64,000 nt of DNA from NCBI GenBank assembly GCA_964588795.1, contig CAZPQN010000002.1, forward strand, positions 48,477 to 112,476, read 5' to 3'. Shown here one piece after another: positions 21,048 through 64,000 of this stretch; position 1 is the stretch's first letter; each line of letters opens with the position of its first letter. The notes below the pieces were generated by a model. The model saw only the letters and a list, made by a program, of their open reading frames with translations. It was not told where the DNA came from and ran no database searches. The stretch comes from an uncultured bacterium (GTDB lineage Bacteria > Fidelibacterota > UBA2242). A program made the position numbers and the translations under genes.

Positions 21048-21076
21048 TTGCATAAGGTTCCGAGACGATGTAAATT
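21048..21076 (+). promoter_or_regulatory. Putative sigma70 promoter for porU
   Basis: TTGCAT-17 nt-TAAATT. Confidence 0.55.
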
Positions 21077-21092
21077 TCCCGTCGTTTACAGC

Positions 21093-33168: not shown

Positions 33169-33169
33169 C

Positions 33170-39312: not shown

Positions 39313-39557
39313 TTCAGTTTAACAACCACAGTGCAACATTAATTATACAGGGTTCCCGACGAGTACGGGGGGTTATAATCCGCATCGCCGGCTCTCCTGC
39401 AGCGTCGCTATCGCGGCGGGCAGACTTTTCCCAAGCGAGAGCGTTAACAACTAATCCGATTAGCAACGCCGGATTTGTCTTTGGCTCACAAATCGGGAAC
39501 CCTGTCTTTTTTATCATTTCTGCTTTTATAATCCTGGTGATCGCATGGAAAATGTAG
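39309..39557 (+). CDS. Possible small membrane protein / leader ORF overlapping a structured element
   Basis: ATGA overlap with murC stop, stop overlaps the ftsQ start, C-terminal hydrophobic stretch; no recognisable family. Confidence 0.35.
   Translation: MIQFNNHSATLIIQGSRRVRGVIIRIAGSPAASLSRRADFSQARALTTNPISNAGFVFGSQIGNPVFFIISAFIILVIAWKM
39347..39512 (+). ncRNA. Candidate structured RNA between murC and ftsQ
   Basis: Perfect 13-bp IR ACAGGGTTCCCGA/TCGGGAACCCTGT followed by CTTTTTT, with nested internal helices. Confidence 0.5.
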
Positions 39558-40351: not shown

Positions 40352-40356
40352 GAAAG

Positions 40357-41619: not shown

Positions 41620-41638
41620 CAATTTCCAGGAGGTAATT

Positions 41639-42844
41639 ATGTATTTCGAATTCGAAGACCTTGAAAATCAAAGCGCGCGTCTGAAAGTCATTGGCGTCGG
41701 TGGAGCGGGCGGTAATGCCGTCACTCGCATGATCGACTATGGACTCCAGGGTGTCGAATTTATTGCTTTGAATACCGACATCCAGGCGCTGGATAAATGC
41801 AAAGCCCAGACCAAATACCAGATCGGGCGCGAACTGACCCGTGGGCTGGGTGCCGGAGCGATGGCTGATATTGGTAAAAAAGCGATTGAAACCGATCGCC
41901 AGGCAGTGCAGGCTTTGATCGGCGGGGCCGATATGGTCTTTATCACTGCCGGTATGGGCGGTGGTACTGGAACTGGTGCGGCACCGGTCGTCTCCGAAAT
42001 CGCTCACGAAATGGGTTGTCTGACCGTCGCGATCGTCACCAAACCGTTTGCCTTTGAAGGTGCCCGACGCATGGCCCGCGCCGAACAAGGTATTCGCGAA
42101 CTCAAGGAAAAAGTCGACACTTTAATAGTCATTCCGAATGAGAAATTGTTAAGCATCGTTGATACAGAGACGATTATTGGTGACGCTTTTAAAACTGCCG
42201 ACAGTGTCTTATATCAGGCCACGCGGGGCATTTCCGATTTGATTAACCGGCATGGAGTAATTAACCTGGACTTCGCCGATGTGCGAACTATCATGAAAGA
42301 CATGGGTGAAGCCCTGATGGGTACCGGTCTGGCTTCCGGCGAGGAGCGGGCCGTCTTAGCCGCGCAACAGGCAATTTCGAGTCCCCTTCTGGAAGATATG
42401 CATATCAAGGGTGCGAAAGGTTTGCTCATCAATGTCACCGGAGGCAAGGATTTACGGCTGAACGAAGTCGACGCCGCCTGTCAGATTATTACCGAAGAGG
42501 CCGGTCAGGACGCGGAAATTATTTTCGGAACCGTGGTCGACGAAAATTTGGGTGACGAGATCATAATTACGGTGATTGCTACGGGTTTCAATCTGGAACG
42601 GGCTCTGAAACCGATTACTCCCACCACAAGCACTTTTTCTTACCCTCCTAAAAAGGAGACGATTAAACCACCGGTCGCGTCAGCGCCGGCACGTGATATA
42701 AACGTTTCAGGCAATCTTTTCGAGCAAGATAGTGCGCAGACACAGGATCCGAATTTTGTGCTTGAAACGGCTCCGGCACCGGTGATCAATAATGACCGGC
42801 GGAATATGATCCCCACCTTTCTGCGTCAGCAGGGAGCAAGTTAA
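41639..42844 (+). CDS. ftsZ: Cell division protein FtsZ
   Basis: [26 protein letters not shown]-terminal IPTFLR. Confidence 0.99.
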
Positions 42845-48600: not shown

Positions 48601-50945
48601 GCATACAACACCGTATTGACGCCATTGCCAGCCAGCGCGAAGGCATCACCAATCCGTAAGGTTGGCGCCGCAATCTCGGCTGCGACGGTAGGTACGGCGG
48701 CTTCATTTTCCCAGCGATAGATTTTGAATGGCGCGGTAGCACCGGTACTCAGGTTACAGACATAAATCACGCCATCCGCTGTCACACGTGGAATATTAAT
48801 CAGGAAGGTTCCACCGGTTACGCCAGTCATATCCAGACGTCCGACGGTGTCGCCATTGGCCGCATTCAGAATCCAGACGAAGGCTCCACCGGTGCGACTG
48901 GCGACCAGCAGGTGATTAGTGGCGGGATTATACGCCATACCGCGCGTGTTGTGGTCATTCTTGAAGAACGGATAACTGGAAATGTCCTTTTCCCACAGGA
49001 AGCGGGATGTAGGCTGACTGACAACCTCAATATCGGCGGCAGAGCGTGGTTCAATCTTGTAGTTGCTGTAGGTGTAGTTGGTGACGCCCGTGATGTTGTA
49101 AACCCAGTTGAGTTTACCAACCGAAACGAAAAGCTGGTCGTCGACCCGGGTGACACCCGAAGCGTCGGTGATTTCCCACTCGCCACTGCCCAGCGACGGG
49201 TTCGTGCAGGTCACATTCATTATTTTGACCAAAACACCTTCGTATTTTTCCTGCTTGAGTTCATTGGCGGTGACCACCACAGGCTCCGGCAACGGACGAT
49301 TATGCTCAATCACAGTCGTGATCGCGCTGTCTATCTCGGTCAGGTTATAGTATTCGGCCATCCGACCTTCGACAACAACCGAATCGCCCACCAGGACACC
49401 AGGAGCAGTATTGGTATAAACATAGACTCCATTCCAGGCACCGGGCGCATCCTGCAGATAATAGGCATTCGAGGCGACACCGGTGACAATACCGGTCGTT
49501 TTTACCCGCTGACCTTTGAGGGGTGAATCGCCAGGCGTCTCGACGACCTTGCCCGTCGTATCCTGAATCGCCGCAATGAATGTGATATACCTGGGCGCTT
49601 CAAAGGTAATATTGACCTTGATCGTATCCGAAGCAATATTATTCACCGAGGTCAATTTGCCGGCATATGAATAAGCCCCGAGTAGATATGAACCCTCGAT
49701 ACGCAGAAATTCATCCGGTTGAGCAATAGCTTTTACCAATCCATCAACTAATGTCAAATTACCACCAGTATCAGCTTTGACGTAGAAGGTTGGCAGATTG
49801 CCATTGATGATTTTCCAGGCTTCGGCCTGCCAGGTTCCGGCAGCAGCACTGGCATCCACGCCCCGTCCGGCCCAGTATTCAAAGAAACCAGTCGGATAAG
49901 ACGTAATTGTGAACCCGTAGTATCCTTCTTTAATCTTTACATTCGTCGCGGTGGCCGCGCTGAAATTCATGTAATAGAAAGCGACGGATGGATCGAGCGT
50001 CATATTAAAACCGCTTGACAGAGTGCCAGGCAATACCGTCCAGGCGATTTTATCATCCGACTTGTCGATCGTACAGGTTGTAAAAGTAGGTTTAATAGTG
50101 ACGGTTGGATGTTCACCCAGATAATTGAAAGTATTTTGCGGATATACTTCCCATTCCGAATCAGTAGTGTTAGTTCCGGATGACAATCCCCAGTCAATAT
50201 TACCCGTCTTGACTGCGGTCTTGCGCACCAAGGTAAATTCAGAGGTTGCTCCGACTCCCCCGGCTACCGGCCAATTAGTTCCCGGATCTACAGTCGGAAC
50301 TCCAATGACGTCGATCAGAACATCATTGAAGAACAGTCCCATGGCATCATCACCGTTGAATGAAGCCACATTCGATCCGACGGCTCCATTGGCAGTATTA
50401 TTATAGGTCAGTACCAGATCTGCGACCGCTTTTATAGCCGCATTAGCCTGATCATTGGTTATGACATAAACATCACCGGCGGCTAATGTTCCAGTTAAGG
50501 GTAAGGCATACCGGGTATCGGCACCCGCAGAAGTACTACCCCAGCCGAAACCGTTATTGGCCTGTTTTACCGTGAATTGACTTAAATCTACGGGCGCATT
50601 AGTACCGTTGTAGATTTCGATTGCCTTGTTATTACTACTGCCTTCGATGTATTCGGAGAAAAAGACATCCGGAATTACAATCGGATTTTCGACATATAGG
50701 TTTTTACAGTTCTTACCAGAACCATCCAGAATGACATCATATCCATTCCGAATAGTGACATTATTGGTCGCGCTCGGGGCAGCAGTAGCGGTTGCCCAGC
50801 TGGTACCGTCGAATTTTTCCCAAGTTCCGACGGTAGACCAGTTGCCACCGTTGACTGCCGACCGGTAATCGCCTGATACCTGTGCCCACAGGGCAGAAGA
50901 CGCCAGCAGGCAGGTCAAAATTAAAAAGGTCAGTAACCGTTTCAT
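45642..50945 (-). CDS. Large modular T9SS type-A cargo protein (lamin-tail domain, OB folds, two DUF4623-like propellers)
   Basis: Signal peptide; FFSEYIEGSSNNKAIEIYN (LTD); EYYNLTEI and FYRGLTEI OB folds; two TRGMAY...TNNG units; HQNYPNPFNP...SGIYFY...KKMTILK tail. Confidence 0.85.
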   Translation of the reverse strand: MKRLLTFLILTCLLASSALWAQVSGDYRSAVNGGNWSTVGTWEKFDGTSWATATAAPSATNNVTIRNGYDVILDGSGKNCKNLYVENPIVIPDVFFSEYIEGSSNNKAIEIYNGTNAPVDLSQFTVKQANNGFGWGSTSAGADTRYALPLTGTLAAGDVYVITNDQANAAIKAVADLVLTYNNTANGAVGSNVASFNGDDAMGLFFNDVLIDVIGVPTVDPGTNWPVAGGVGATSEFTLVRKTAVKTGNIDWGLSSGTNTTDSEWEVYPQNTFNYLGEHPTVTIKPTFTTCTIDKSDDKIAWTVLPGTLSSGFNMTLDPSVAFYYMNFSAATATNVKIKEGYYGFTITSYPTGFFEYWAGRGVDASAAAGTWQAEAWKIINGNLPTFYVKADTGGNLTLVDGLVKAIAQPDEFLRIEGSYLLGAYSYAGKLTSVNNIASDTIKVNITFEAPRYITFIAAIQDTTGKVVETPGDSPLKGQRVKTTGIVTGVASNAYYLQDAPGAWNGVYVYTNTAPGVLVGDSVVVEGRMAEYYNLTEIDSAITTVIEHNRPLPEPVVVTANELKQEKYEGVLVKIMNVTCTNPSLGSGEWEITDASGVTRVDDQLFVSVGKLNWVYNITGVTNYTYSNYKIEPRSAADIEVVSQPTSRFLWEKDISSYPFFKNDHNTRGMAYNPATNHLLVASRTGGAFVWILNAANGDTVGRLDMTGVTGGTFLINIPRVTADGVIYVCNLSTGATAPFKIYRWENEAAVPTVAAEIAAPTLRIGDAFALAGNGVNTVLYASGSNSTQISVFNTVDGVAFTAGTPIPVATGLARGGIAPAEDGSFWVNGAGTATSHIDANGALIAAVDGGLIDGGWHNVGYLNYPFTKKMIAIVGKNNAFRGNQVQVWNISESETTPVLVDTVNLTSGYNANTNACGDLAFRKNVDGTITVFELITNNGIAAWNLTPPIHIPLLTIAEAKADGDGNFRPDLENKRVAVRGVITTTDFESLNPAFWNVFIQDTTGGLNIYSSKFKGPITIGDEIELHGILTFYRGLTEIIPDSLSHVKVLSHGNLVPPRKVKLADIGEETESILVQVDSIWFVQPTTWPAPANNANLQVTDGIDTVTFRIDKDSDVDDWADWPRGIFGVIAVGNQYTAKVPPNDGYQIQGIAKDLFYLYPEPFKPEPLVPFWAKTQATMNFPAYMSTGNYTRGMAYGKVEGNDRVYVVTRSGAHRIVVYDAMTGDSLKEIPAPPNPVGTFPVNAVDVSDDGRIYVCNMTLDASTTAFTVYQYLNENATPVPVISYTGLNKRFGDMFSVYGSAADNSLTIYAAAPSSDKIVKFSTADHGATFTPTEITLSRTMGSLPNVAPDADGSLWIKSAGKPLMHLGIDGTTLDTVSTEIVGTSSSKIKYFDDGVKKCLLVYYYNFATDAGMEKFHVIDVTEGPAKAKLVRFSHSIGNVANLNGTGSVDVMPIDEHTWVAFIMGTNNGLAAFTNAKDLLPPNVKVKFYGTTPNVLNNPYGAGYICGSNAYGDLGKYQRFDLNANNFNFLYGFMLQFGVMNIVDEPDTLDLVVKGIGAQGVPGELLFSIKVPTSQIDTALLGIHNVFRLPSPIPVPPHFFVGFEWPATANDQFAMLSDKNGEGDGQNRVWERFADGGYNDFGTVLNPSYSWGIDIDLWISAFYIQGPEVSIKSQTDVLPTRYALHQNYPNPFNPTTNILLALPEPADVKLVVYNMIGQEVATIHRGHLPAGNHVFNFSSANLASGIYFYKVQANNFTALKKMTILK

Positions 50946-51327: not shown

Positions 51328-52695
51328 ATGAAAAAGATTATTGCCTGTAGTAGTGTAATCTTCGGGCTTGTCGCAACTGTTGTTGGGCAAGCCGGTCCAT
51401 GGGTGTACAGGCCGGAAAGTGATATAACGTTCAGTTTAGCGGATTCACTCAGTAACCCTTTCCTGTGCGCTACTGACTCAACCGGAAATCTCTGGGTCCT
51501 TTCTTCGACCTCCACTTCTCTGCATGCGATCAATGCCCTGTACAAAGCCGCTCCCGGTGATACAGTATTCACGTTGATTGACGATTACACCGACGATGCA
51601 CCGGTGCATTCGGCCCGCGGCATTTGCGCTATAGGCAATGATATTTTCGTAGCAGTCCGCAAAACTACTACCGATATGACCGCCATGTTCAAATATCCGC
51701 ATGGAAATTTTTCCGAGCGTGTAGCTTATTCGCTGGATACCTATGTTTCCGGCTACGGAACGTATGTATACGGAATTAGTGGCACCAAGGATGGTTTTAT
51801 TTACGGTGGAATTGGATATCTGGGACCGCGAATTCGGCTGTACGATTTTACCGGATTAGCCAGTCCGGACGGAAAATATGTTGCTCCCGAATGCTCAGCG
51901 GTTGATCCCGGTGGTTCGTCACCAACTGGTCAGGATGTCATCCGCGACGTGGCTACCATACCAAATGCCGATTATTTCGCCACCGCGACACCCATCTATA
52001 CTTCACGGAATAGTCTGTCGGGCGGTAATACCGGTGGCGTAACCAAATGGACCGGTGGTACGCAGAACGCGCCAGCCGGTTACACCTGTGTAGCCATCGA
52101 AGACGCCGACAGCTACTTGAAATGGACCAGCAACGTCCCTAACGGTCTCACCTGTGATGCGCAGGGCAATCTCTGGGCTGTCGGGACTGACACGACCCGT
52201 CGCTGGGTCAAATGCTTCGCGATTGACGGTAACTGGGCAACGCAGATCGCCGAACTGCCCAGTGCGACCAGCGCGGATCTTCCCAATGTTTGGGGGGCAC
52301 CTTTTGTGACGCCCGAAGATATAGCGCTTAGTCCGGATGGTAACGTCGCCTATGTAATTGACTGCGGAGCCCGGCGTTGCTTTGCATTCCAGAAGGAAAC
52401 TGATGACGTGCGAGCGAGTAGCACGCCGAACTCAAAATTTCGCCTCTATCCGGCTTATCCCAATCCGTTCAATCCCGTCACTTCGCTAAAATTTGACCTT
52501 CCGGCGGCCGGGCAGGTCAAAGCCCAGCTTTTCGACCTCCACGGCAAGCTGGTCAGGACGCTGTATGCCGGTGAGCGACAGGCAGGGCTAAATGTATTGA
52601 CATTTAATGCCGCTGAACTACCGACCGGTACCTATCTCTTTCAAATTTCCACTGCGTGGGGCACCCAGTCCAATCGGATCACATTATTGAAATAA
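51328..52695 (+). CDS. Secreted beta-propeller-like protein with T9SS type-A CTD
   Basis: Signal peptide, NHL-like blades (D..GNLW, PEDIALSPDG), AYPNPFNP tail. Confidence 0.8.
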   Translation: MKKIIACSSVIFGLVATVVGQAGPWVYRPESDITFSLADSLSNPFLCATDSTGNLWVLSSTSTSLHAINALYKAAPGDTVFTLIDDYTDDAPVHSARGICAIGNDIFVAVRKTTTDMTAMFKYPHGNFSERVAYSLDTYVSGYGTYVYGISGTKDGFIYGGIGYLGPRIRLYDFTGLASPDGKYVAPECSAVDPGGSSPTGQDVIRDVATIPNADYFATATPIYTSRNSLSGGNTGGVTKWTGGTQNAPAGYTCVAIEDADSYLKWTSNVPNGLTCDAQGNLWAVGTDTTRRWVKCFAIDGNWATQIAELPSATSADLPNVWGAPFVTPEDIALSPDGNVAYVIDCGARRCFAFQKETDDVRASSTPNSKFRLYPAYPNPFNPVTSLKFDLPAAGQVKAQLFDLHGKLVRTLYAGERQAGLNVLTFNAAELPTGTYLFQISTAWGTQSNRITLLK

Positions 52696-52699
52696 TCCA

Positions 52700-55240
52700 A
52701 TGCGTTCGGTCGTAACCGCGTGGTATCTGTCGCTACGAATATCTTTATTATTCCTGTTAACTTTCAATTATAGCCAGTCCCAAATTTCTGAGTTACGCGG
52801 TGTCTGGCTGAGTCGGGACGTTGTCCGCCAGGGGCGCAATTCTATCCACGATGCATTTCTACACCTGAAGCAGGCTGGATTCAACGCGGTGTTTGTCAAC
52901 AATTGGTATCAGGGCTCGACAATTTATCCGAGTCAGGTGTTAGCTAGTTATGGTGGAGATGAGCAACTGGATGATTACGCAGGTTGGGATCCAGTCAGAG
53001 TTTGCGTTGAGGAAGGACACGCACTTGGTTTGGAAGTGCACCTGTGGTTCGAATACGGATTGATCGCCCATTTCAATTATGCTACGCCCAATCCCGATCC
53101 CGGACCGATTCTTACTCATCATCCCGAATGGCGGATGAAAAACCGATCGGGAAAAACCTATGCGACTGATAGTTTTAATAATCTGCAATTCTGGCTTGAT
53201 CCGGCGGATTCCACGGCTTGCGGCTTTATAACCGAGCTCTTTGCAGAGTGTGCCCGGCTTTATCCGGAGCTCGATGGCATCCAGACCGATCGCATCCGCT
53301 ACCCGGATACCAGCTATTCTTTTTCAGACGTCGCCCGGCTGAAGTATCAGCAGGAAACCGGGGGCACCGATCCACTGTTAATTGACAAATCACACAGCGA
53401 GTGGACGCAGTTCATCAGCTGGCGTGAACGCCAGACCAGCAACCTTGCCCACCAAATTTACCAAACTATTAAAAGTATTAATCCCCGTCTTTTGGTTTCC
53501 GCGGCTGTCGCTCCGCCCTATATGCTGGAAGGCGCACAGGACAAAATGCAGGATTGGCCGACCTGGTTCATGGAAAAATCGATAGACCTGCTGTGTCCGA
53601 TGCTGTATGGTCTGCACAATGATATGCCTTACTGGCTTGGCAGGTGTTTGGCGGCAGTTCCCTCATCCTTAAATTTCGCCGCGGGTGTGGCGATCGCAGA
53701 CCTTACCTCAACTCAACTGTCCAATGTCTATAATTCCATTCGCGACAGAGGTTTTGCCGGAAGTGTGGTCTGGTACTATGGCGACCTGAATGAATCGAAC
53801 CTTAGCACCTTCGAAAATGATCTTTTCATCCCGCCCGCTCCGACGCTAAATCAGCAGATCATCGTTGACGATTCTTACTCGGCCTATATCTCCGCCCGCA
53901 ATACATTCTCCGCTCCTGGTGGCTATAGAGACAGTTATCAGATTGCCACGTCCGACGATGCTTTTCTTCAATGGCGGATCCCGGTCTTCCTGACCGGCAA
54001 CTATCAGATCGCGACCTTTCTCCCGGTATCGGCGCCGCAACTGGATTCATTGATTTATATCATCAGCCTCAACGGCAATGCTGAGTCACCCAAATCCGTC
54101 GCTACTAATCAAATGACAGGTGCCTGGTTGACTTTAGGAAATTATCACCTGCAGTTCAGTGACGACCTGTCAATCCGGGTGATTCCCAACCATAATAATC
54201 AGTTAATCGCCGATGCCGTGCGACTTGAGCGGCTCAAGCCTCTGGCCATCGTCGAAGGTTTGACTCCTGATCAGACCACGCTGATGGTTAAATTCGACCG
54301 GAAATTGCGTGCTGAAAGCGCCGGCAATGCGGCGAACTACCGACTGTTTCCGGATGGAATAATAGAAAAAGCAACCCCGGACGCCGGCGATCCTCAGGTC
54401 GTCAGGTTAAAATGTTCCTCCCTCTCACCTGATAAAAACTACCGTCTTAAGGCCTGGGATTTGGTTGATCTTGCGGGGCTGGTCAGTGATACGGTTACTT
54501 TCGATTTCGAATATACTCCCGGATTGTCGGCAATAATTGATGATGAATCAACCCTGTTCGGCACGACCGGTAATTGGTCAATGAGTGCAGATGGTCAACC
54601 GCTCATCGGCACTGCATATCACCGCACCCCAGCCGGTGACGGTGCTAACCGGGTTTTTTGGCGTTATCCGGCACCGGCTTCCGGCTATTACATAGCCTAT
54701 GCCCTGTTTCCGGACTCTTCGATTTTCGTTGACGATGCCATGTATATCGTTAAGAACGGTGCGAATTTCGACACCGTTTTAGTCAACCAGCAGGCGCCCT
54801 GCGCGGCAGGAATCCCGCTCACAATTACCTACGCCGAAAAAGGCAGCAATTTAGTCGTGAAACTACACAATCAGTCCCGCAACCCAAGCGACCATTGGGT
54901 CGTAGCGGATGCGGTACGGTTCGAAAAAACTTTCATCCCTGCGACAGTCATTGATACGCCGCTTAACGACCAACCTGCCGACTTCAAACTTTTCGGCAAT
55001 TTTCCCAACCCTTTCAATACCGGCACGAATATTTTCTTCAACCTTGAGCAGTCCGGCACAATGCGCTTGGCTATTTTCGATTTATCCGGCCGCCAAATCA
55101 AAGCGGTGGTTAAAAATTATTCAAGCGGTGGAAAATACATCATACCGGTTGCTTTGAACAACCAACCAGCGGGCATTTACCTATATCGGATTTCCAATGG
55201 GACAAGGACACAGGCCGGTAAAATGCTGTTAATCAAGTGA
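52700..55240 (+). CDS. GHL10 (DUF187) glycoside hydrolase with two golvesin/Xly-CBD-like modules, Ig-like domain and T9SS CTD
   Basis: ELRGVW, LEVHLWFEYG, DGIQTDRIRYP, QDWPTW, PMLY; two 'IxDD...ADAVR' modules; NFPNPFN tail. Confidence 0.82.
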   Translation: MRSVVTAWYLSLRISLLFLLTFNYSQSQISELRGVWLSRDVVRQGRNSIHDAFLHLKQAGFNAVFVNNWYQGSTIYPSQVLASYGGDEQLDDYAGWDPVRVCVEEGHALGLEVHLWFEYGLIAHFNYATPNPDPGPILTHHPEWRMKNRSGKTYATDSFNNLQFWLDPADSTACGFITELFAECARLYPELDGIQTDRIRYPDTSYSFSDVARLKYQQETGGTDPLLIDKSHSEWTQFISWRERQTSNLAHQIYQTIKSINPRLLVSAAVAPPYMLEGAQDKMQDWPTWFMEKSIDLLCPMLYGLHNDMPYWLGRCLAAVPSSLNFAAGVAIADLTSTQLSNVYNSIRDRGFAGSVVWYYGDLNESNLSTFENDLFIPPAPTLNQQIIVDDSYSAYISARNTFSAPGGYRDSYQIATSDDAFLQWRIPVFLTGNYQIATFLPVSAPQLDSLIYIISLNGNAESPKSVATNQMTGAWLTLGNYHLQFSDDLSIRVIPNHNNQLIADAVRLERLKPLAIVEGLTPDQTTLMVKFDRKLRAESAGNAANYRLFPDGIIEKATPDAGDPQVVRLKCSSLSPDKNYRLKAWDLVDLAGLVSDTVTFDFEYTPGLSAIIDDESTLFGTTGNWSMSADGQPLIGTAYHRTPAGDGANRVFWRYPAPASGYYIAYALFPDSSIFVDDAMYIVKNGANFDTVLVNQQAPCAAGIPLTITYAEKGSNLVVKLHNQSRNPSDHWVVADAVRFEKTFIPATVIDTPLNDQPADFKLFGNFPNPFNTGTNIFFNLEQSGTMRLAIFDLSGRQIKAVVKNYSSGGKYIIPVALNNQPAGIYLYRISNGTRTQAGKMLLIK

Positions 55241-55250
55241 GGAATCATTC

Positions 55251-58200
55251 TTGACAGCTGGACGAAAAAAAATACGCCAGCAACCAGCACGTTTCTTTCC
55301 GCGGGTGGATCATATTTTCCGATGTATCACCGACCCGTTTTTACATCTGATCATCTTATTTGCCCTTCTGACATCCGAGCTCCTACCCCAAAACACAGGT
55401 AAAATCTCCGGGCGGGTTTTCGATGCGGCTGCGCAGAAGGCCTTGCCAGGTGCCAACGTCGTTATTCCCGAATTACAGACCGGAGCGGCGACGGATTTGA
55501 ATGGCCATTTTGCCATCATGCGGCTCTATCCCGGCAGTTATACGCTTAAAGTTACCTTTATCGGTTACTCGCCAATTACTATTACCGATGTAAGGGTCAG
55601 CATTGACAAAACGACCTTCCTCGAGATTCCAATGCAGATACAGGGCATCGCCACTCAGGAAGTGGTTGTCACAGCTAAAAAGCCCATTGTCGAAAAAGAC
55701 AAAACTTTCAGCTCCACCAACTTCGAAGCGGATGAAATCAGCGAAATACCGTCCGAGGGTTTGCGCGACATTCTCGACCTGAACGCCAGCCTGCAGCGCA
55801 ATGCGAATGGAACTTATTCCCTGCGCGGGGGTGGCAGTTTCGACATCAACTTCATGATTGACGGGGTGAGTCAGGAAAATTCCAACACCGGCGTTCCTGG
55901 TACAAATTACATGGGTGAGAAGTCGAATACGTCCTGGAAATATGACTTCAATCCATTGGGCGTCAAGCAGATGGAATTAATTTCCGGAGGATTCAGTGCC
56001 GAGTATGGCAACGCCCAATCCGGTGTCGTCAAAATCGTGACTAAGGAAGGTACCCCCGCATTTCACGGCGAGATGCGCATCGAATACCGCGGGCCGGGTC
56101 AGTATCACTTCGGTGATTATCTCTACGGGCGTAACAATTTCGAATGGCAACGCTGGGGACAACTGGAAAACTGGTTCACTGCGACGGCCTTTCAACTCCC
56201 GCAGAGTAGTCAAATCGGCACACCTTCCTATATAGACGGAATACCTGTCAATCTGTTCTATTTCTCCGACTCCCTTCATACCTACCTGCCTTATAGTCGT
56301 TCAATCAACGACTCACTCGCTGTCGCTTATTACAACCAGTGGCTGGCCTCCCACTCACCCGGCGGAAAAATCCTGTCGCAGGTTACCGATTACAACTGGA
56401 CTGTTAGTGGATCGGGTCAATTAAGTAGCGGTGATTCGGTGATGCTCTATCGCAAAAACTGGCTTTATTCACAGGTCAAGAATCCCACGAACAAGTTAGG
56501 AGTGTATGATTATCGCCAATTGTCCTTTGTGCGTTACCTGTTTGGTTTAGGCGGGCCGATCGGGCAACTGGAGGGTTGCACCTTCTTTCTATCGGGGGAA
56601 AAGCGCCGCAAGCCTACACGCCTGCCTACCTATGAAAAATACAACGACTATGAAAATATCAATCTGACGACTGTTTTGCGGGTAAGCTCGGCTCTGCGGG
56701 TACGGACAATGCTACAGTATCAGCACAGCCGCAATGGCGTTTTCTCGGGATCGGATGACATTCGCTGGGCTTCGCCGGTTGGCAGTGTTTCCTTCAACAC
56801 CGGAAAACAAAAATACCTGCTGATTTCTATTGCCCCGAAAGATGAATATGCCTGGATTCAATCGCTGATGCTGACTTACGTCTTTCGACCGGAAACTTTC
56901 TTAGAATGGACGATCTCGCATACCTACGAACAGTACGCGATGAATACCGAGCCACTTTCCACCACCTGGCAGGCGCCTCAGGGAGTGTGGGACGAAGGTT
57001 ATACACGCCTGGTCTGGGATCCTTCGGCCACGGCCTACAATCAGGATGTACGCACCGATATTTACGCGACAAAATTAGATTTCACCCACCAGTTCAGTCC
57101 TCAGAACCACCTCAAAGCCGGCCTGCAGGCCACCGGCTGGAAGATGCATTACAGTTCGGTATCCAGTGCGTATGCCAACGCGCTTATCTATAAATCCGGA
57201 TTTGCCGAATACTATAAAGCCAATCCAATCTATGCCGCCGGTTATGTGCAGGATAAAATGGAGTACAAAGGTCTGATTGCCAATCTCGGTCTCCGGTTGG
57301 AGGGATTCAACAACAACGCGGATGTCCCGGCTGACCCCTATGACGTCTTTTATCCGGGTACGATGGGACCAACGGACGTCGGCAGTCCGGAAACACAAAA
57401 ACCCCAAACCCATTGGGCACTCTCGCCGCGGGCCGGACTGTCATTCCCGATCGGTGAACGCACGGCGTTTCGTCTGCAATATGGTCATTTCTATGCCATG
57501 CCCATCTTTCGGCACACTTTATCGCGCTCTACCTGGCAGGGTTGGATCATGGTCGGTAACCCGAACCTGGATTTTCGAAAAACAATCAGTTATGAATTCG
57601 GACTTCAGCACAGCCTTTTCGGGACGCATCGCCTGGACGTAGTCGCCTATTATAATGACCGCACCAGTCAAACAATCAACATCCGCCGCCACTTTGATCA
57701 GGGAAGTTACGGTCGTAGCGTCACTGATCCTTACGCCGCGACCTATGTCAATACGGGTTACGGCGCCACCCGCGGCATTGAAATAGCCCTGGATCGAGTC
57801 GCCGTTTCCAATTGGCGCTACCGCTTCAAGTACGCTCTGTCCCGCACCTCGTCAGGGGCTTATGGTCCCTGGGAAATCTGGGAAAAAGATGACCCCAATA
57901 AACCCTTTGATATGCGTCCGTTCATTCTGCGCGCCAATGATAATATCACCTCCGAAGATAAAACGCACGCTTTCAGTGCCATAGTAACCTACTCCTGGGC
58001 CAAGAAAAGTGGACCGCATATCGGCAGTTTCTTCCCGCTGGCCAACTCCGCCCTTTCACTCAGCTACATGTTTCGCAGTGGCAGTCCGTTCACCTACGTC
58101 ACGAGCTACGATGAATTTTTCGATGTGGAAAATAACCGCCGTTACCCGCTCGAATATGAGACCGATTTGAGTTATCTGAAAAGTGTCAAGATGTTAGGTT

Positions 58201-58415
58201 TCGAGGTGACGATCGCCTGTCGCATCCAGAACCTATTCAATAACCGGTGGCTGACGCCCTTCGATGCGACGGTCGAGAAGGATGACCTGAACCGCTGGGT
58301 CCTGACCGGCCTGACTTGGGACGATCCAAACCATCCTAATTATAAATATAACTATCACCGCGCGTACCGCAACACGCCACGGGAAATTTATTTTAACTTG
58401 GGACTCGGATTCTAA
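55251..58415 (+). CDS. TonB-dependent receptor
   Basis: TGKISG.V.D, GGFSAEYGNAQSGVV plug motif, SPRAGLSFPI, C-terminal PREIYFNLGLGF. Confidence 0.92.
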   Translation: MTAGRKKIRQQPARFFPRVDHIFRCITDPFLHLIILFALLTSELLPQNTGKISGRVFDAAAQKALPGANVVIPELQTGAATDLNGHFAIMRLYPGSYTLKVTFIGYSPITITDVRVSIDKTTFLEIPMQIQGIATQEVVVTAKKPIVEKDKTFSSTNFEADEISEIPSEGLRDILDLNASLQRNANGTYSLRGGGSFDINFMIDGVSQENSNTGVPGTNYMGEKSNTSWKYDFNPLGVKQMELISGGFSAEYGNAQSGVVKIVTKEGTPAFHGEMRIEYRGPGQYHFGDYLYGRNNFEWQRWGQLENWFTATAFQLPQSSQIGTPSYIDGIPVNLFYFSDSLHTYLPYSRSINDSLAVAYYNQWLASHSPGGKILSQVTDYNWTVSGSGQLSSGDSVMLYRKNWLYSQVKNPTNKLGVYDYRQLSFVRYLFGLGGPIGQLEGCTFFLSGEKRRKPTRLPTYEKYNDYENINLTTVLRVSSALRVRTMLQYQHSRNGVFSGSDDIRWASPVGSVSFNTGKQKYLLISIAPKDEYAWIQSLMLTYVFRPETFLEWTISHTYEQYAMNTEPLSTTWQAPQGVWDEGYTRLVWDPSATAYNQDVRTDIYATKLDFTHQFSPQNHLKAGLQATGWKMHYSSVSSAYANALIYKSGFAEYYKANPIYAAGYVQDKMEYKGLIANLGLRLEGFNNNADVPADPYDVFYPGTMGPTDVGSPETQKPQTHWALSPRAGLSFPIGERTAFRLQYGHFYAMPIFRHTLSRSTWQGWIMVGNPNLDFRKTISYEFGLQHSLFGTHRLDVVAYYNDRTSQTINIRRHFDQGSYGRSVTDPYAATYVNTGYGATRGIEIALDRVAVSNWRYRFKYALSRTSSGAYGPWEIWEKDDPNKPFDMRPFILRANDNITSEDKTHAFSAIVTYSWAKKSGPHIGSFFPLANSALSLSYMFRSGSPFTYVTSYDEFFDVENNRRYPLEYETDLSYLKSVKMLGFEVTIACRIQNLFNNRWLTPFDATVEKDDLNRWVLTGLTWDDPNHPNYKYNYHRAYRNTPREIYFNLGLGF

Positions 58416-58429
58416 AGGGTAATTATACG

Positions 58430-60457
58430 ATGCCAGACCGCAAGAAAATATCGCTCTCCGTACCCTTGACCTTGACCTCGACCTCAGCCTTAATCTTGAC
58501 CCTAATCTTTTTCTCTCTTCCCCTCCTATCTTACGCCCAGGATAATGTACTTTTTTTACGGGAAGGGCGGCTCTGGGAAACCATCAACCTGGCAAAGATC
58601 GGTCCCACTTTCAACAACTGGGCACGCAGTGGATATGGCATGGATCATCCTGGTTACGAACCCAACTGGATCGCCGGTCATACGGGACTTGCACCTTCTC
58701 ACCATTGCGGAGGTGGATTCTGGATCACGGCCCTTAGTCCGAGCGGTTCAGTTTGGGGTGTGGAGGATTTTGCACTGTATGCCGGTTCGGTGGGTTTCGA
58801 ACCAACTGCCAAGTATATCGCCCAGACAAACCGTTTTGTCTATCCGGATAAATCCAACTACTTTCAGCAAACCAACCCGCACGCTGGTGAGCTTTGCGTC
58901 GAGACAATTTTTCAATGGAATCCGCAGTATATATTCCCCTATACTCGCCAGGCTTTCCTGCCCATTCGCGTCAGCCGCAGGATCCACCAGTGGGTCACGC
59001 ACGAAATTGACCAGGATTATATCATTTGTGACTATGTTATTACGAATGTCGGCGACTCTACGATGCACAAGACTTATCTGATGTTTCTGTACGGTTTTGC
59101 CATAAATGCCCGGGGTTGGTCAATTTTGTTCCCTGACTACAACCAGGGAGCGCGGAATACGCGCATGGTTTGGGATGGCACCCGGCGTCTGATGTACGGC
59201 TATGCCGCCAATTTCAGCGAAACTCCCGGCGATGATGCCTATGATTACTGGGAACAGGGCGGCCCTAACCGTCAGGGAGAATATCTTGCGCCCGGTTATG
59301 CTGGATTGAAATTCCTCTACATCTCCCCCGACTCAAGCGGTCGGGCCAATCGCATTCATAAATACGGCTGGGCGGCTTCGCATCCCACCCAAGCCAGTCA
59401 TCCCTTCACCAATCAGGGCACTCTCGACGCGGAATATCAGATTATCCGTAATCCGGCTCTGGCGACGGATGCTATTACCTCGATGGGTGACACGCGCTGG
59501 GGTTCAACCCGCGTCTGGACCATGCTAACCGTGGGACCTTGGGACCTCGCTCCGGGGGATTCCATCCGGATTGTCCTGGCGGAACTTGTCGGGAGTGTAC
59601 CGTATGAAACGGTCATCAATCCGGCCACTCAGGTGACGCATATCGCTAAAGGGAAAAACATCCTGCTCGATCTGGCCGCCAGAGCCCAGGCTTGCTTCGA
59701 TCGCGATTTCGATCTGCCTGACCCGCCGGCACCGCCATACGAATTTCAATTGAATCACTTGGCAGAAGACAAAGTCGGCGCCCGCTTGAGCTGGTCGGAC
59801 GCCAATGAAGCCATTCCCGACCCGGATTATACCGGTAGTGCAGCCCTAGACTTCGCGGGATATAAAATTTACCGGTCAAACTATCTGCCCATCGGACCGT
59901 GGGATTCTATTGGAGTGATTGCGCGCCACGATCCGCAATACTTCGACAATGCCAGCGGTAAGTATTCTTTCATTGATTCGGCTCTGACAATTGGCGAAAG
60001 TTACTACTACGCGATTACGGCTTACGATCAGGGACATCCGCTCTGGCCGCCCGATCCGGGCAGCTATCCCAGTGGCGTTCCCCCGCTCGAGAGTTCCAAG
60101 TATGTCAATCGTACGATCCAACCTTTTCGTGCCGGATTGGGGCCCAGTAAAAACCTGGCGCGGGTTCTGGTTGTCCCGAATCCGTTTATCATGTCCTCAG
60201 GACTGACGATACCGGGAGACGAGGATATTATTCAATTCGTCAATGTACCAAGCCCCTGCACGATCCGCATCTATACCGTGCGGGGTGATCTTGTTAAAAT
60301 AATCGAACATAAGGAAGAGGTCGGCACGGCTACCTGGGATCAGGTGACCAGCTGGGGACAATTCGTCGAAAGCGGCATTTATATTTATCATATCACCTCA
60401 CATGCCGCCGATTCCAAAAACCAAACTGTAATCGGGAAATTCAGCATTATCCGATGA
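58430..60457 (+). CDS. Secreted TBDR-associated protein with Fn3-like region and variant T9SS CTD
   Basis: Signal peptide; DFAGYKIYRS, YYYAITAYD; tail VVPNPF...CTIRIYTVRGDLVK...WD...SGIYIYHI...GKFSIIR. Confidence 0.75.
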   Translation: MPDRKKISLSVPLTLTSTSALILTLIFFSLPLLSYAQDNVLFLREGRLWETINLAKIGPTFNNWARSGYGMDHPGYEPNWIAGHTGLAPSHHCGGGFWITALSPSGSVWGVEDFALYAGSVGFEPTAKYIAQTNRFVYPDKSNYFQQTNPHAGELCVETIFQWNPQYIFPYTRQAFLPIRVSRRIHQWVTHEIDQDYIICDYVITNVGDSTMHKTYLMFLYGFAINARGWSILFPDYNQGARNTRMVWDGTRRLMYGYAANFSETPGDDAYDYWEQGGPNRQGEYLAPGYAGLKFLYISPDSSGRANRIHKYGWAASHPTQASHPFTNQGTLDAEYQIIRNPALATDAITSMGDTRWGSTRVWTMLTVGPWDLAPGDSIRIVLAELVGSVPYETVINPATQVTHIAKGKNILLDLAARAQACFDRDFDLPDPPAPPYEFQLNHLAEDKVGARLSWSDANEAIPDPDYTGSAALDFAGYKIYRSNYLPIGPWDSIGVIARHDPQYFDNASGKYSFIDSALTIGESYYYAITAYDQGHPLWPPDPGSYPSGVPPLESSKYVNRTIQPFRAGLGPSKNLARVLVVPNPFIMSSGLTIPGDEDIIQFVNVPSPCTIRIYTVRGDLVKIIEHKEEVGTATWDQVTSWGQFVESGIYIYHITSHAADSKNQTVIGKFSIIR

Positions 60458-60576
60458 TACAAATTATTTTTTCTAATCATTCGAACTGTTCAGCTATACA
60501 AAGTATTCAGTGTGATACTCGTTTAGATTCAATCAGCCGTCGGAAAATAACCCTGCACTCGATTGGCCGTGAACGG

Positions 60577-61548
60577 ATGATGTATTGCTCAACTTTAATT
60601 CATCACGGGCGGATTTCGCTTCGCTCAACCTTAGTCTTGGTCCTGACCTTGTCCCTATCTTTCCCGCCTGGGCTTTCGGCGCGTTTTCGCAAAACCGGTA
60701 CGGTCGGTTATAGCTTTTTAAAAATTCCTGTCACCGCCCGGCATACAGCTTTGGGCGAATCTATGGGAAGTATCACGGATAACGCCGGCATCACACCGTT
60801 GTTTTTAAATCCAGCTGTTTTAGGTTTCCAGACCCATAAGACCGTCGGGTGCAGTTATTCCACCTGGATCGCCGATATAAATCATCAGGCTGGCGGGGTG
60901 ACCTCTGACCTCGGGTATTTTGGAATAATCGGCATTGGAATCAACTATTTAGATTACGGCGAATTTACGCGGACTGCACACGGTGCAAACTTAGGCGAAT
61001 ATTTAGTAACCGGCACGTACCAGGCTCAAGCTTTAGCGATCGGTCTGACTTATGCCCGTCGGCTCACTGACCGCTTCGCGTACGGACTCAGGCTCAATCA
61101 CGTGCGCGAGACGATCGCAGAGTATACCTCGACCAATTTCCTGCTCGATATGGGAGTTATTTATTTCACCGGCTGGCGTTCCTTGCGAATCGGTGGTTTT
61201 ATCAACAATTTCGGAGTAGACGAAAAATATATCGGAGACTCCTTCAAAATGCCGACTGAATTGCATCTCAGTCTGACTTACGACCTTTTCGACATAACCC
61301 ACCATAAGTTGACCCTGACAAGTGAATTGTCCCATCCCAGCGACAATCTGGAAAAAATTCACGTGGGTGTTGAGTATCAGTTGTACCGGACTATTTTCCT
61401 GCGCGGCGGTTATAAATTTCAGACCGATGAAGACCATTTTGCGTTCGGCGGCGGGATTCTCTGGCAAGGTTTTTTACTCGACCTGGCTGTGACACCGTTC
61501 GGCAGGTTCCCGACCATTTACCATTTAACCCTCCAGAAGGAGTTTTGA
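60577..61548 (+). CDS. PorV/PorQ family outer-membrane beta-barrel
   Basis: FLKIPVTAR..ALG, NPAVL, GVEY...LRGGY, terminal Phe; start uncertain (60454 also possible). Confidence 0.85.
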   Translation: MMYCSTLIHHGRISLRSTLVLVLTLSLSFPPGLSARFRKTGTVGYSFLKIPVTARHTALGESMGSITDNAGITPLFLNPAVLGFQTHKTVGCSYSTWIADINHQAGGVTSDLGYFGIIGIGINYLDYGEFTRTAHGANLGEYLVTGTYQAQALAIGLTYARRLTDRFAYGLRLNHVRETIAEYTSTNFLLDMGVIYFTGWRSLRIGGFINNFGVDEKYIGDSFKMPTELHLSLTYDLFDITHHKLTLTSELSHPSDNLEKIHVGVEYQLYRTIFLRGGYKFQTDEDHFAFGGGILWQGFLLDLAVTPFGRFPTIYHLTLQKEF

Positions 61549-61594: not shown

Positions 61595-62305
61595 TTGGTC
61601 GTGATGGCGGTTTTTATTCTCGCAGTTCAAGCCAATCCCACCCCCCGAGTGCATTTAACCAACATCATCCTGAACGGAGGCTATTCTAAGGCAACCGGGA
61701 TTGACCGAAGTTACACTAAACTCGATGGATACGGATTTGAAATCTGCGCAAACTGGCAACTGCGATCCCGATTATCCGCCGGATTAACGACTGACCATCA
61801 TTACTATACTATCGAACAGCAGGACGCTGTAAAAAATTGGGGCTGGTCTTACTGGCAAAAAATATACAACGGTGTCATCGCGACTCTGCAGAACGATCCG
61901 ACCTACGATGTACGCCTGCAACCCCACCAAATCCTCAAGACCAAAAGCATCGATCTGAATGGCGAATTACGTTTGCCATTCGGTAAATATTTGACCGTCC
62001 GGTCTGATGTACGAGGCGGATTGGTTTGGTACTCGCGCCAGCTCTGGCTACATGAATTCTGGACCCGCTATTACCCTTCTATTGACTATACCTTTAAATA
62101 TGACTTCCGGAATTATGCGAACGCCCGCTGGGGATGGGTCTATGACCTTGCCGCCAGCGTCGGGGCGGAATTATACCTGACGCACTCGGTTAGTGTCTCG
62201 GTTCAGGTGGGCTATACTCACTATTTACGTGAGCGGCGCGATGCTGAGTTCTTCCCCCTGCGCAATAACATTTTAATAAACTACGGTGTAATTCTGAATT
62301 ACTGA
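61595..62305 (+). CDS. Putative small outer-membrane beta-barrel
   Basis: Alternating beta-strand pattern, aromatic-rich, terminal Tyr; true start may lie upstream. Confidence 0.6.
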   Translation: MVVMAVFILAVQANPTPRVHLTNIILNGGYSKATGIDRSYTKLDGYGFEICANWQLRSRLSAGLTTDHHYYTIEQQDAVKNWGWSYWQKIYNGVIATLQNDPTYDVRLQPHQILKTKSIDLNGELRLPFGKYLTVRSDVRGGLVWYSRQLWLHEFWTRYYPSIDYTFKYDFRNYANARWGWVYDLAASVGAELYLTHSVSVSVQVGYTHYLRERRDAEFFPLRNNILINYGVILNY

Positions 62306-62306
62306 T

Positions 62307-62972
62307 ATGTTGCAAAAATATTTCTGGTTCAAATTATATATCGTTCTTTTAGCCGCGCTTGACCTGAATCCGATCAACGCTCAGACATATTGCGGAGGCG
62401 GTTTGGGATGGCTAAACCCGGTTGGCGGACTGACTTCGCGGTTTAGTTCTGCTTTTGTACCGATTCTGGAAGGTGGTTATCAGCGTGATGAATCCTCGAA
62501 AATCATTTTTCAGTATCAACCGGTGGTCCTGCACAAAGTTAACCGTGCTTATTTGTACTATGACAAATTAGATATGCGCTTGAATAATCACAGCCTGGCG
62601 TTACTTTTCGAGCGCTCCGTCTGGAAGCCGGTGAATTACTGCGCGGTATCACTCTACGGTGGTGTATCATTAAATCGCTGGAGTTACAGACTGAAAGGGT
62701 TTCATCAGGCCGATACGCTAATGGCGGTCGGAGGTGAGGACTCGGTAGTTGTAGTCGATAATCCGCCTTTCGGCCAGCAGGATTGGAGCTGGGGTGGTCG
62801 AATCGGCGCCTGTGTGACTTTGACTCCAATCCGATTTCTCGAATGCGGTTGGCGTTGCGATTACCATTTGCTCATTGCCGAACTATGGCCGCTTCTGAAT
62901 GTCCGCTTAGAGAATGTGAGCGGTTTGCAAACGGCGACTCTGCAATTCTTTGTCAGGTTTAAAATCAATTAA
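62307..62972 (+). CDS. Putative small outer-membrane beta-barrel
   Basis: Signal peptide, 'GLG...PVG.L', amphipathic strands, C-terminal LQFFVRF. Confidence 0.6.
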   Translation: MLQKYFWFKLYIVLLAALDLNPINAQTYCGGGLGWLNPVGGLTSRFSSAFVPILEGGYQRDESSKIIFQYQPVVLHKVNRAYLYYDKLDMRLNNHSLALLFERSVWKPVNYCAVSLYGGVSLNRWSYRLKGFHQADTLMAVGGEDSVVVVDNPPFGQQDWSWGGRIGACVTLTPIRFLECGWRCDYHLLIAELWPLLNVRLENVSGLQTATLQFFVRFKIN

Positions 62973-62991
62973 ACTCAGGGGAATCCCGTTT

Positions 62992-64000
62992 ATGCGTTTC
63001 CTGATTATTACCCTATCCACCGTCTGTTTGACATTGCTCGAGTGCGCACCTTCGCCAAAACTAAAGTTTTTATGGATAGACGGTTCCGCCAATTTCCGAC
63101 GGCTAAGTTGCAGTGATTCGATCCGGACAGTCATTGCCAGAATCGCCACGCATGGCTTTGACGGGATTATCGTCGATTTGAAACCGATTTCGGGTGAGGT
63201 GCTCTATCCCAGCAAAATTGCGCCGCAGATTGTCGAGTGGAAAGGGGCTTACCGGGACCGCGATTTCAACTATCCGGAAATAATCTTGTCCGAAAGTAAA
63301 AAAAACCACCTGAAAGTCTACGCCGCCGTCAACGTCTTTTCCGAAGGCTGGAAAAGCCAGCAACGCGGACCGATTTACCGCAATCACCCCGAGTGGCAAA
63401 CCGTGCTTTATCTGCCGCCTGATACTCTTGTACCTACGACCCAGTACTCCGAAGGTTATGCCGCTTTCGTCAATCCTGCCGATCCGCAAGTCCAGGAGTA
63501 TGAAATCAGTCTCATGGAGGAGATCCTGAATAATTATGATTTCGATGGCATCGTCCTGGACCGGGCGCGTTATGACAATATCCGCGCGGATTTTTCTGCA
63601 TTTTCGCGGACCCAATTTGAAAAATGGTTCGGGCAGACCATCGGTCACTGGCCGGCGGATATTTTCACCTGGCAGAAAGATTCCCAGAATCAATGGCAAC
63701 CGGTTCCCGGGAAACTTTTCAAATCGTGGCTGGAATGGCGGGCCGGGATCATCTATGCGTTTTTCGCTAAGGCCCAACAGCGCCTGAAAAATGTCAACAA
63801 GGACCTGACTTTCGCCGCTTACACCGGTGCCTGGTACGGCACCTATTATGAGTTGGGCGTTAATTGGGCCAGTCAAAAGTACCAGCCTGTCCGCGACTAC
63901 GAATGGGCTTCGCCGGATTATCAACGCACGGGCTACGCCGAATTGCTCGACGGCCTTTTTTCCGGTTGTTACTTTTATCACGTTGATCCACAGGAATTAA
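62992..64000 (+). CDS. GHL10/DUF4985-like glycoside hydrolase, probable lipoprotein (runs off window edge)
   Basis: Not in the ORF track. My translation: MRFLIITLSTVCLTLLEC...LWIDGSANF...VDLKPISGEVLYPS...FVNPADP...DGIVLDRARYD...WLEWRA...YYELGVNWAS, open to the window end. Confidence 0.85.
   Translation, partial: MRFLIITLSTVCLTLLECAPSPKLKFLWIDGSANFRRLSCSDSIRTVIARIATHGFDGIIVDLKPISGEVLYPSKIAPQIVEWKGAYRDRDFNYPEIILSESKKNHLKVYAAVNVFSEGWKSQQRGPIYRNHPEWQTVLYLPPDTLVPTTQYSEGYAAFVNPADPQVQEYEISLMEEILNNYDFDGIVLDRARYDNIRADFSAFSRTQFEKWFGQTIGHWPADIFTWQKDSQNQWQPVPGKLFKSWLEWRAGIIYAFFAKAQQRLKNVNKDLTFAAYTGAWYGTYYELGVNWASQKYQPVRDYEWASPDYQRTGYAELLDGLFSGCYFYHVDPQEL

Follow-up and report, generated by a model that had tools for sequence, protein, structure and literature searches.

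A conserved trio of TonB-dependent receptor, variant-CTD partner protein and PorV/PorQ-family barrel as the candidate core of a SusD-less uptake unit in Fidelibacterota

The DNA analysed here, called the window, is a stretch of 64,000 nucleotides (nt) from an uncultured bacterium of the phylum Fidelibacterota (UBA2242; GenBank assembly GCA_964588795.1, contig CAZPQN010000002.1). It corresponds to G000:C2:48477-112476 in a 2.34-Mb genome of 75 contigs that is 97.11% complete. Between positions 55251 and 61548 the plus strand encodes a TonB-dependent receptor (55251-58415, 1054 aa), a partner protein hereafter called X (58430-60457, 675 aa) and an outer-membrane barrel of the PorV/PorQ family (60454-61548, 364 aa). 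A first-pass annotation of the bare sequence had proposed that this triplet is an uptake system in which X, exported by the T9SS (type IX secretion system), is a substrate-capturing lid held at the cell surface by its own PorV-like barrel, and the open reading frames (ORFs) lie exactly where it had placed them. According to the ORF list, 14 nt separate the receptor gene from that of X, and the genes of X and the barrel overlap by 4 nt. The trio is the core of a tight eight-gene cluster on the same strand, which extends from 51328 to beyond 64000. Scans for promoters (18 sites versus 15.6 expected) and terminators (16 found versus 14.9 expected) remained at chance level.

Gene 1 is a TonB-dependent receptor because it combines a CarboxypepD_reg-like N-terminal domain (CarbopepD_reg_2, PF13715; residues 52-140, E 1e-18) with a Plug domain (PF07715; residues 149-258, E 5.7e-9), beyond which there is a large barrel. 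Judged by score, it is not of the SusC/RagA class: the corresponding model TIGR04056 gave 87.7 bits against a cut-off of 368.25, and the match covered only profile positions 2-218 of 981, that is, the N-terminal domain and the plug. When solved structures were searched with the receptor sequence, the sole relative was an N-terminal-domain fragment (6ytc). The receptors of the modules described below form a subfamily of their own, the full-length ones scoring 139-848 bits to the window receptor and the other receptors of the genome less than 70. In this genome, the subfamily is confined to these modules.

Partner X presents a signal peptide without a lipobox (residues 1-36), a beta-supersandwich (about 37-430), an FN3-like domain (about 440-570) and a variant type-A C-terminal domain (CTD; about 575-675). 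Its description as a non-lipoprotein holds, since no Cys occurs before about residue 93. The Pfam search of X returned no family, and the ESM Atlas returned only clusters of hypothetical proteins. Regarding SusD/RagB, X shows no PF07980 or PF14322 match and no Cys in the signal-peptide region, and its model is all-beta instead of the helical fold rich in tetratricopeptide repeats. In that AlphaFold2 model (pLDDT 84, pTM 0.81), the supersandwich is followed by the FN3-like domain and an Ig-like CTD whose terminal beta-sandwich comprises residues 601-673. No catalytic (alpha/alpha)6 domain follows the supersandwich in the model.

The best structural matches to the supersandwich are the non-catalytic N-domains of glycoside hydrolase (GH) family enzymes of GH94, GH15, GH116 and GH65 (Z 16.6-18.2). 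They include 5nz7_A, from the cellodextrin/cellobiose phosphorylases (Z 18.2, 271 residues aligned, root-mean-square deviation 3.9), and the glucoamylase 1lf6_A (Z 17.9). Galactose-mutarotase-like proteins rank below them at Z of about 12-13, and Foldseek agrees with the independent structure search. As modelled, the N-domain of X has a galactose-mutarotase-like fold, which is of a carbohydrate-binding type. By sequence searches its family is small and unannotated: among 1.84 billion representatives, 26 proteins matched at E<=1e-3, 16 at E<=1e-10 and 9 at E<=1e-30. The full-length matches measure about 570-760 aa, consistent with the architecture of X. The closest relatives of X occur in a UBA2242 metagenome-assembled genome (MAG; 74% identity) and in Fidelibacter multiformis (Marinimicrobia/Fidelibacterota; 64%). 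Invariant residues of the N-domain include D72, R183, R228, E284 and E385.

The tail of X (VVPNPF...GKFSIIR) differs from the YPNPFN...K[ML]xL[LI]K tails of its neighbours, as had already been noticed in the first reading. The last 100 residues of X give a closer match to the tails of PorZ (E 1.2e-6) and PorU (E 7.8e-6) than to TIGR04183, the generic type-A model. An iterated hidden Markov model (HMM) of the CTDs of this genome recovers the X tail and finds 75 CTD proteins, 8 of them with a PorV-family gene directly downstream. Another HMM, specific for the X class, was built from the tails of X orthologues with the X of the window left out. On it, the 11 module partners score 50-160 bits and the best of the other 64 CTD proteins, which is PorU, 33.9 bits; the only protein with both a generic CTD and a barrel, on contig C50, scores 26.7 bits. 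By eye, this class is characterized by an insertion after the PNPF motif, a strand of the form FxNxP..CxIRI[FY]T and the end GK[FL]x[IV][IV][RK]. These comparisons support the CTD of X as a distinct class, apparently tied to co-encoded PorV/PorQ barrels.

The CTD is also the best-kept part of X. Over 26 sequences, the mean pairwise identity is 59% in the CTD, 48% in the FN3-like domain and 43% in the N-domain. In the same 10 genomes, the CTD of X is 65% identical and the generic CTD of the neighbouring GHL10 protein 34%, versus 54% for the catalytic domain of that protein. A cleaved signal is usually poorly conserved. Hence, the conservation of the X tail fits a permanent docking module and would not be expected of a discarded signal. 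As a sub-variant of the docking tail, the partners encoded at G000:C4:45909-49301 (L094) and G000:C25:29756-33061 (L096) carry a conserved extension of about 10 residues past the usual last strand of the CTD, ending in ...ERLDVY and ...ERLDAY, respectively.

Gene 3 had been assigned to the PorV family, and the PorV/PorQ-family model NF033709 confirms it with 170.6 bits against a cut-off of 90. The barrel falls under both equivalog cut-offs, that of PorQ (NF033711, 128.7 bits, cut-off 220) and that of PorV (NF033710, 52.5 bits, cut-off 250). The profile of its orthologues matches the solved PorV 6h3i_F (E 1.6e-21), and 10 further paralogous barrels of the genome reach 94.5-220.3 bits on NF033709. 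The annotated ORF is probably too long: from a true start near 60577 (Met42/43), the product would have a signal peptide, and the mature barrel would begin at about residue 77; the orthologues have about 305-335 aa and are alignable from about residue 43. The first-pass annotation had also drawn a parallel with type-B CTD proteins and their PorP/SprF barrels. The parallel stands as an analogy, in that a cargo comes with its own barrel, but the tail of X is a type-A variant and the barrel belongs to the PorV/PorQ family. A type-B assignment was rejected, as neither X nor the barrel presented a TIGR04131 or PorP/SprF match at E<=0.01.

To model the complex, the mature barrel (residues 77-364) and the CTD of X (residues 572-675) were combined using our own alignments. 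The interaction that the first-pass annotation had expected between CTD and barrel was found in the prediction, with ipSAE values of 0.92, 0.91 and 0.92 versus 0.00 for the best of three controls. Of 80 solved complexes, 58 attain this ipSAE mark, as do 2 of 110 mismatched pairs, figures that apply only roughly here given the use of our own alignments. At least 95% of the contacts agree between runs, and the pLDDT of the partner is at least 82. On both sides the modelled interface takes in nearly invariant residues, among them the N-terminal F78-K80-T83-G85 stretch, T174, E219-I221 and R351 of the barrel and V581-P585, R613-G619, S648-G649 and K670-F671 of the CTD. These in silico results indicate that X is probably anchored by the barrel.

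The conservation of the trio was explored by scanning one genome per prokaryote species, which gave 311 loci with a relative of X, and the best 80 of these 311 were examined for neighbours. A receptor orthologue lies directly upstream of X in 77 of the 80 loci, and in the other three (L012, L038 and L047) the upstream flank is shorter than 400 nt. Directly downstream of X, 79/80 loci carry a PorV/PorQ barrel, although the barrel match of L027 is only a weak fragment. The genes are co-directional, with median gaps across related loci of 2 nt between receptor and X and 5 nt between X and barrel. The hosts are labelled as Marinimicrobia, Calditrichota, Kryptonia, KSB1, Ignavibacteria, Melioribacteraceae and various 'Bacteroidota' MAGs. 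Such an arrangement goes far beyond what chance would give, and the objection that the triplet might not be conserved fails in view of this synteny.

The module is also multiplied within the genome. There are about 14 PorV/PorQ-family genes (18 profile matches, with the individual genes checked), 9 of which follow a receptor and have a large CTD protein (675-1319 aa) in the same module. These nine modules are located on contigs C2, C14, C18, C8, C31, C26, C4, C25 and C30. The CTD partner stands between receptor and barrel in eight of them and upstream of the receptor in C31. Two further receptor-partner pairs, a second module on C18 and one on C65, reach contig ends. At G000:C18:1-14500 (L090) there is a receptor followed by a tandem pair of partner paralogues, an ORF of 229 aa and a single barrel, and immediately afterwards the second receptor with its partner, which runs off the contig. 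The stretches G000:C41:1-2233 and G000:C30:26342-26887 encode overlapping parts of one receptor, with the same peptide at both ends, so that C41 and C30 probably join and would thereby complete the C30 module.

What the partners of the other modules have in common with X is limited to the FN3 and CTD part, and their N-terminal regions are unrelated. Pfam returned no family for 9/9 of these paralogous partners, apart from one sub-threshold FlgD_ig match. Unlike heads on a common FN3 and CTD part are the pattern of interchangeable, putatively substrate-specific heads on an anchoring stalk. The barrels outside the modules look like housekeeping copies, the best PorV-family match among them being on C7. 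In G000:C1:87300-99840 (L098), a 522-aa protein whose tail is PorZ-like and a tandem pair of PorV-family barrels are encoded a few kb from the T9SS translocon gene sprA; these are probably housekeeping genes of the attachment complex.

Expansion of the barrel family is not limited to this genome. PorV-family matches number 2-25 per genome in 81/81 sampled genomes of the phylum, window genome included, the value of 2 corresponding to 1-Mb streamlined genomes. The association with receptors is also seen outside the phylum: of the 11 PorV-family genes in a complete Ignavibacteriaceae genome, 7 are situated 0-6.9 kb downstream of a Plug hit (20 in total) on the same strand, where our own arithmetic gives about 0.2 as the chance expectation.

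Concerning export, the genome encodes the SprA translocon (C1:93545-99657) and, inside the window, the sortase PorU (21048-25001, plus strand; NF033707 720.8 bits, cut-off 420). The SprA sequence is split over two frames (880 and 1272 aa), suggestive of a frameshift or an error in the assembly. No PorV-family gene adjoins the PorU gene of the window, and a second, weaker PorU-like gene is present on C12. Regarding SusD, its reported absence from the window extends to the rest of the contig, so that none lies just beyond the window, and to the whole genome: PF07980 and PF14322 gave 0 matches at 97.11% completeness, while a Bacteroides thetaiotaomicron positive control matched. SusD was equally without a match in 5/5 other genomes carrying the locus. 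In the sample of 81 genomes of the phylum, 15 have a SusD_RagB match and 66 have none.

The five other genes of the cluster surround the trio on the plus strand. Upstream, the first gene (51328..52695) encodes a 455-aa secreted protein with a generic type-A CTD (Por_Secre_tail, E 1.5e-7) and weak beta-propeller-type signals (SGL and Reg_prop, below cut-off). It is followed by an 846-aa GHL10 hydrolase (52700..55240; GHL10 E 7.4e-35) with Golvesin_C domains (E 1.2e-31) and also a generic type-A CTD (Por_Secre_tail, E 2.5e-8). Downstream of the barrel gene, d236 (61595..62305, 236 aa) is predicted as a small OmpA/OmpX-like beta-barrel outer-membrane protein (AlphaFold2 pLDDT 93), with Foldseek matches to OmpA transmembrane domains (E 3.5e-10, target TM score 0.70-0.72). 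Next, d221 (62307..62972, 221 aa, with a signal peptide) is probably a second small outer-membrane barrel, as far as its sequence tells. Neither d236 nor d221 presents a Pfam or NCBIfam family. The last gene (62950..64000, and on for 308 nt past the window end to G000:C2:112784) encodes a 452-aa protein with GHL10 (E 3.7e-17) and DUF4985 (E 1.6e-33) domains. Both GHL10 proteins pass the PF02638 gathering cut-off of 27.9 bits, with 121 bits for the 846-aa hydrolase and 62.8 bits for the 452-aa protein.

These neighbours were counted over the same 80 loci, many of them short-flanked, and strict E cut-offs were applied since counts at E<=1e-4 were inflated by cross-matches through shared CTDs. 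A relative of d236 (E<=1e-9) is found downstream in 66/80 loci and one of d221 in 56/80 at E<=1e-5 (60/80 at E<=1e-4). A GHL10 ORF (E<=1e-24) occurs in the flanks of 50 loci, and a relative of the 455-aa CTD protein (E<=1e-30) in those of 44. Many Ignavibacteria loci have a further CTD-bearing GHL10 gene downstream. The closest paralogous module of the genome, on C14, has the same layout and three GHL10 genes. Overall, the 2.3-Mb genome gives 10 GHL10 (PF02638) matches, several with CTDs, which is many considering how few members of this family have been characterised.

Among solved structures, the GHL10 domain has a single relative, Cwp19 from Clostridioides difficile (5oq2, E 9.8e-6). DigH of Escherichia coli is presumably a member of PF02638 too, the support for this being that the E. 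coli control matched in the PF02638 search. Cwp19 has been presented as a GHL10 protein (PMC5765458) and described as a peptidoglycan lytic transglycosylase (PMC6016235), and DigH has been reported to degrade denuded peptidoglycan glycans (PMC12288456). Since these relatives act on peptidoglycan, a peptidoglycan-type glycan would be a reasonable guess, no more, as to which substrate this version of the module handles. The only cultured member of the phylum depends on external muropeptides, and the available text of that report does not mention receptors or T9SS (PMC11652737). Elsewhere in the window, at 27099-42844 on the plus strand, RsmH (TIGR00006, 326 bits; the sole gene tested) is followed by a run of ORFs on the same strand. 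This looks like a dcw (division/cell-wall) cluster and, if so, the organism would make its own peptidoglycan, unlike what is reported for the cultured relative Fidelibacter. Divergent to the uptake locus, at 45642-50945 on the minus strand, a CTD protein of 1767 aa carries Lamin-tail, DUF4623, DUF5018 and DUF5689 domains.

Altogether, the best explanation of the trio is that it constitutes the core of a SusD-less outer-membrane uptake unit that resembles a polysaccharide-utilisation locus (PUL). X would cross the inner membrane by Sec and then be exported by the T9SS through its variant type-A CTD. Rather than being removed, this CTD would attach non-covalently to the PorV/PorQ-family barrel encoded with it, in the manner of PorZ on PorQ and of PorU on PorV, and X would thus stay on the cell surface. 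There, its supersandwich could capture the glycan fragments produced by the secreted GHL10 enzymes of the locus and deliver them to the adjacent TonB-dependent receptor for import, with which it would be coupled physically or functionally. Based on the sequence comparisons and the structural models, we consider it rather probable that X is held in this way by an uncleaved CTD on a private barrel and captures GHL10-released glycan for the receptor. Of the interpretation offered in the first-pass annotation, the part concerning a T9SS-exported partner on a dedicated barrel is backed by the conserved and iterated trio, the CTD class, the predicted docking, the lack of SusD matches and the carbohydrate-binding-type fold; X as a substrate-capturing lid on the receptor stays a possibility.

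Several observations weigh against this interpretation. The CTD of X scores 17.3 bits on TIGR04183, under the cut-off of 23, and has no match to Pfam PF18962. PorV is present in 7 solved entries, so the success of the complex model may reflect the memory of the modelling program for solved PorV-type complexes, and this success says nothing about specificity for this barrel versus the other 13 of the genome. The supersandwich fold is no proof of sugar binding, as aldose epimerases and a GH174 fucanase (Z 13.1) use it catalytically. Moreover, the layout varies: in C18 there are two X paralogues per barrel, the receptor is directly followed by the barrel in C31, as it is in one Ignavibacteriaceae module, and therefore the stoichiometry is not always 1:1:1. 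Among the 80 loci, L026 has a downstream flank without a detectable barrel, and L035 has its barrel at a distance of 1 kb.

The sharing of one barrel by two X paralogues in C18 is also what could be expected if the barrel were a private secretion shuttle, which would take the variant-CTD cargo at SprA and hand it to PorU for removal of the CTD. X would then be linked to lipopolysaccharide or free, and would serve the receptor either by binding glycans at the surface or as a scavenger in solution. By family the barrel is as PorV-like as it is PorQ-like, PorU is present in the genome, and the modelled contact between CTD and barrel would fit a transient shuttle equally well as a stable anchor. 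However, a general shuttle needs no copy for each cargo gene, yet nine barrels stand in receptor modules. In addition, the CTD would be discarded in this case, and it is the best-conserved region of X (59% versus 43% in the N-domain, and 34% in the neighbouring generic CTD); its tail best matches the CTDs of PorZ and PorU, both reported as uncleaved. For these reasons a shuttle is considered unlikely. Another explanation, which is compatible with anchoring, is that X is an enzyme that uses the supersandwich as scaffold (a glycoside hydrolase, lyase or epimerase of a new kind), and that the barrel simply displays it next to the receptor. Catalytic supersandwiches are among its structural matches, such as the GH174 endo-fucanase (Z 13.1), aldose 1-epimerases (Z 11.9-12.8) and polysaccharide lyase domains (Z about 12-13), and the invariant acidic, basic and aromatic residues of the N-domain (D72, R183, R228, E284 and E385, for example) could be in agreement with it. 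Nevertheless, the non-catalytic GH N-domains rank above all of these, the locus already has two GHL10 enzymes, with one more in many Ignavibacteria loci, and the unrelated N-terminal regions that occupy the X slot of other modules are the pattern of binding proteins. An enzymatic X seems, for its part, improbable.

It could also be that the receptor and the X-barrel pair are linked by regulation only, X and its barrel forming an adhesin or a cell-wall-related unit without a transport role. In fact, the C50 and C1 loci have a PorV-family barrel and a CTD partner without a receptor, but the partners of these receptor-less barrels carry generic or PorZ-like tails, not the X-class CTD. The median gap of 2 nt between receptor and X in 77 loci of several phyla and the confinement of the receptor subfamily to such modules also argue against mere co-regulation, which appears very unlikely. 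Returning to an X anchored on its barrel, a bolder version would be a lipid-free 'two-barrel utilisome' built by the T9SS, in which X is a movable cap over the receptor with its retained CTD plugged into the adjacent barrel. It would be a general solution for glycan import in SusD-less phyla of the Fibrobacterota-Chlorobiota-Bacteroidota (FCB) group (Fidelibacterota, Calditrichota, Ignavibacteria, Kryptonia and KSB1), and the version found here would import peptidoglycan-type strands freed from other bacteria by secreted GHL10 (Cwp19/DigH-like) enzymes. Taken as a whole, this scenario is doubtful.

For Bacteroidota, the textbook example of how glycans are captured is SusC/SusD. The trio resembles the SusC/SusD (RagA/RagB) pairs of Bacteroidota PULs or utilisomes in that a CarboxypepD_reg-like receptor is encoded directly before a surface partner, the locus holds secreted glycan-active enzymes, and many copies of the module with varied partners occur per genome. 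It differs in that the receptor of the window is not SusC-class and its partner is all-beta, with no lipobox and no homology to SusD, and in that it has an obligatory third gene, the PorV/PorQ barrel. Unlike SusD, which has a lipid anchor, X would be held by protein-protein docking after export by the T9SS.

The closest parallel for such docking is found in the attachment complex of Porphyromonas gingivalis. According to a review, the CTD of PorU stays bound to PorV and that of PorZ is retained and binds PorQ, and cognate PorV-like barrels are hypothesised there to shield CTDs from cleavage (PMC10202324). As in PorZ-PorQ and PorU-PorV, a type-A-like CTD is paired here with a barrel of the PorV/PorQ family, and the modelled complex passes its controls. 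However, PorZ-PorQ and PorU-PorV occur in single copy and have a housekeeping function in the secretion machinery, whereas the X-barrel pair is present in about 9 copies, in uptake loci behind a receptor. The passenger of X is a sugar-binding-type domain, and its barrel is below the equivalog cut-offs of both PorQ and PorV. Type-B CTD proteins are also surface-anchored by a co-encoded PorP/SprF-like barrel, for example SprB-SprF (PMC9143113); there too the cargo gene is followed by its own cognate barrel, although the CTD class and the barrel family are others. In the BamG-BamH pair of the Bacteroidota beta-barrel assembly machinery (BAM), a 14-stranded FadL-family barrel is the platform for a surface-exposed protein (PMC12578637), and the likeness to X and its barrel lies in this use of a barrel as an attachment platform. 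Unlike X, BamH is a lipoprotein, and the function of its complex is the assembly of outer-membrane proteins, with no CTD, T9SS or receptor involved. BamG gave one weak sub-threshold match, to one paralogous barrel of the genome.

All the parts are of known kinds: the TonB-dependent receptor, the type-A-like CTD, the PorV/PorQ barrel and the retention of a CTD. No paper was found on a unit of receptor, CTD protein and PorV-like barrel that replaces SusC/SusD, in a literature search that extended neither to supplements nor to subscription journals. In the available text of the genome paper of Caldithrix abyssi, TonB is mentioned for vitamin transport only. Hence, the trio as a multiplied nutrient-uptake module in place of SusC/SusD looks undescribed.

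This may be relevant for large and abundant sister lineages of the Bacteroidota (Marinimicrobia/SAR406, Ignavibacteria and Calditrichota), which mostly lack SusD yet have many TonB-dependent receptors. If X is indeed docked on a private barrel, this would explain the expansion of the PorV family in these phyla and would provide a rule for locating their polysaccharide-utilisation loci. Likewise, the role of PorV-like barrels would reach from the secretion machinery to nutrient uptake. Moreover, the GHL10 content of the locus suggests a route for harvesting bacterial cell-wall glycans, which may be of relevance to the muropeptide-dependent cultured member of the phylum (PMC11652737).

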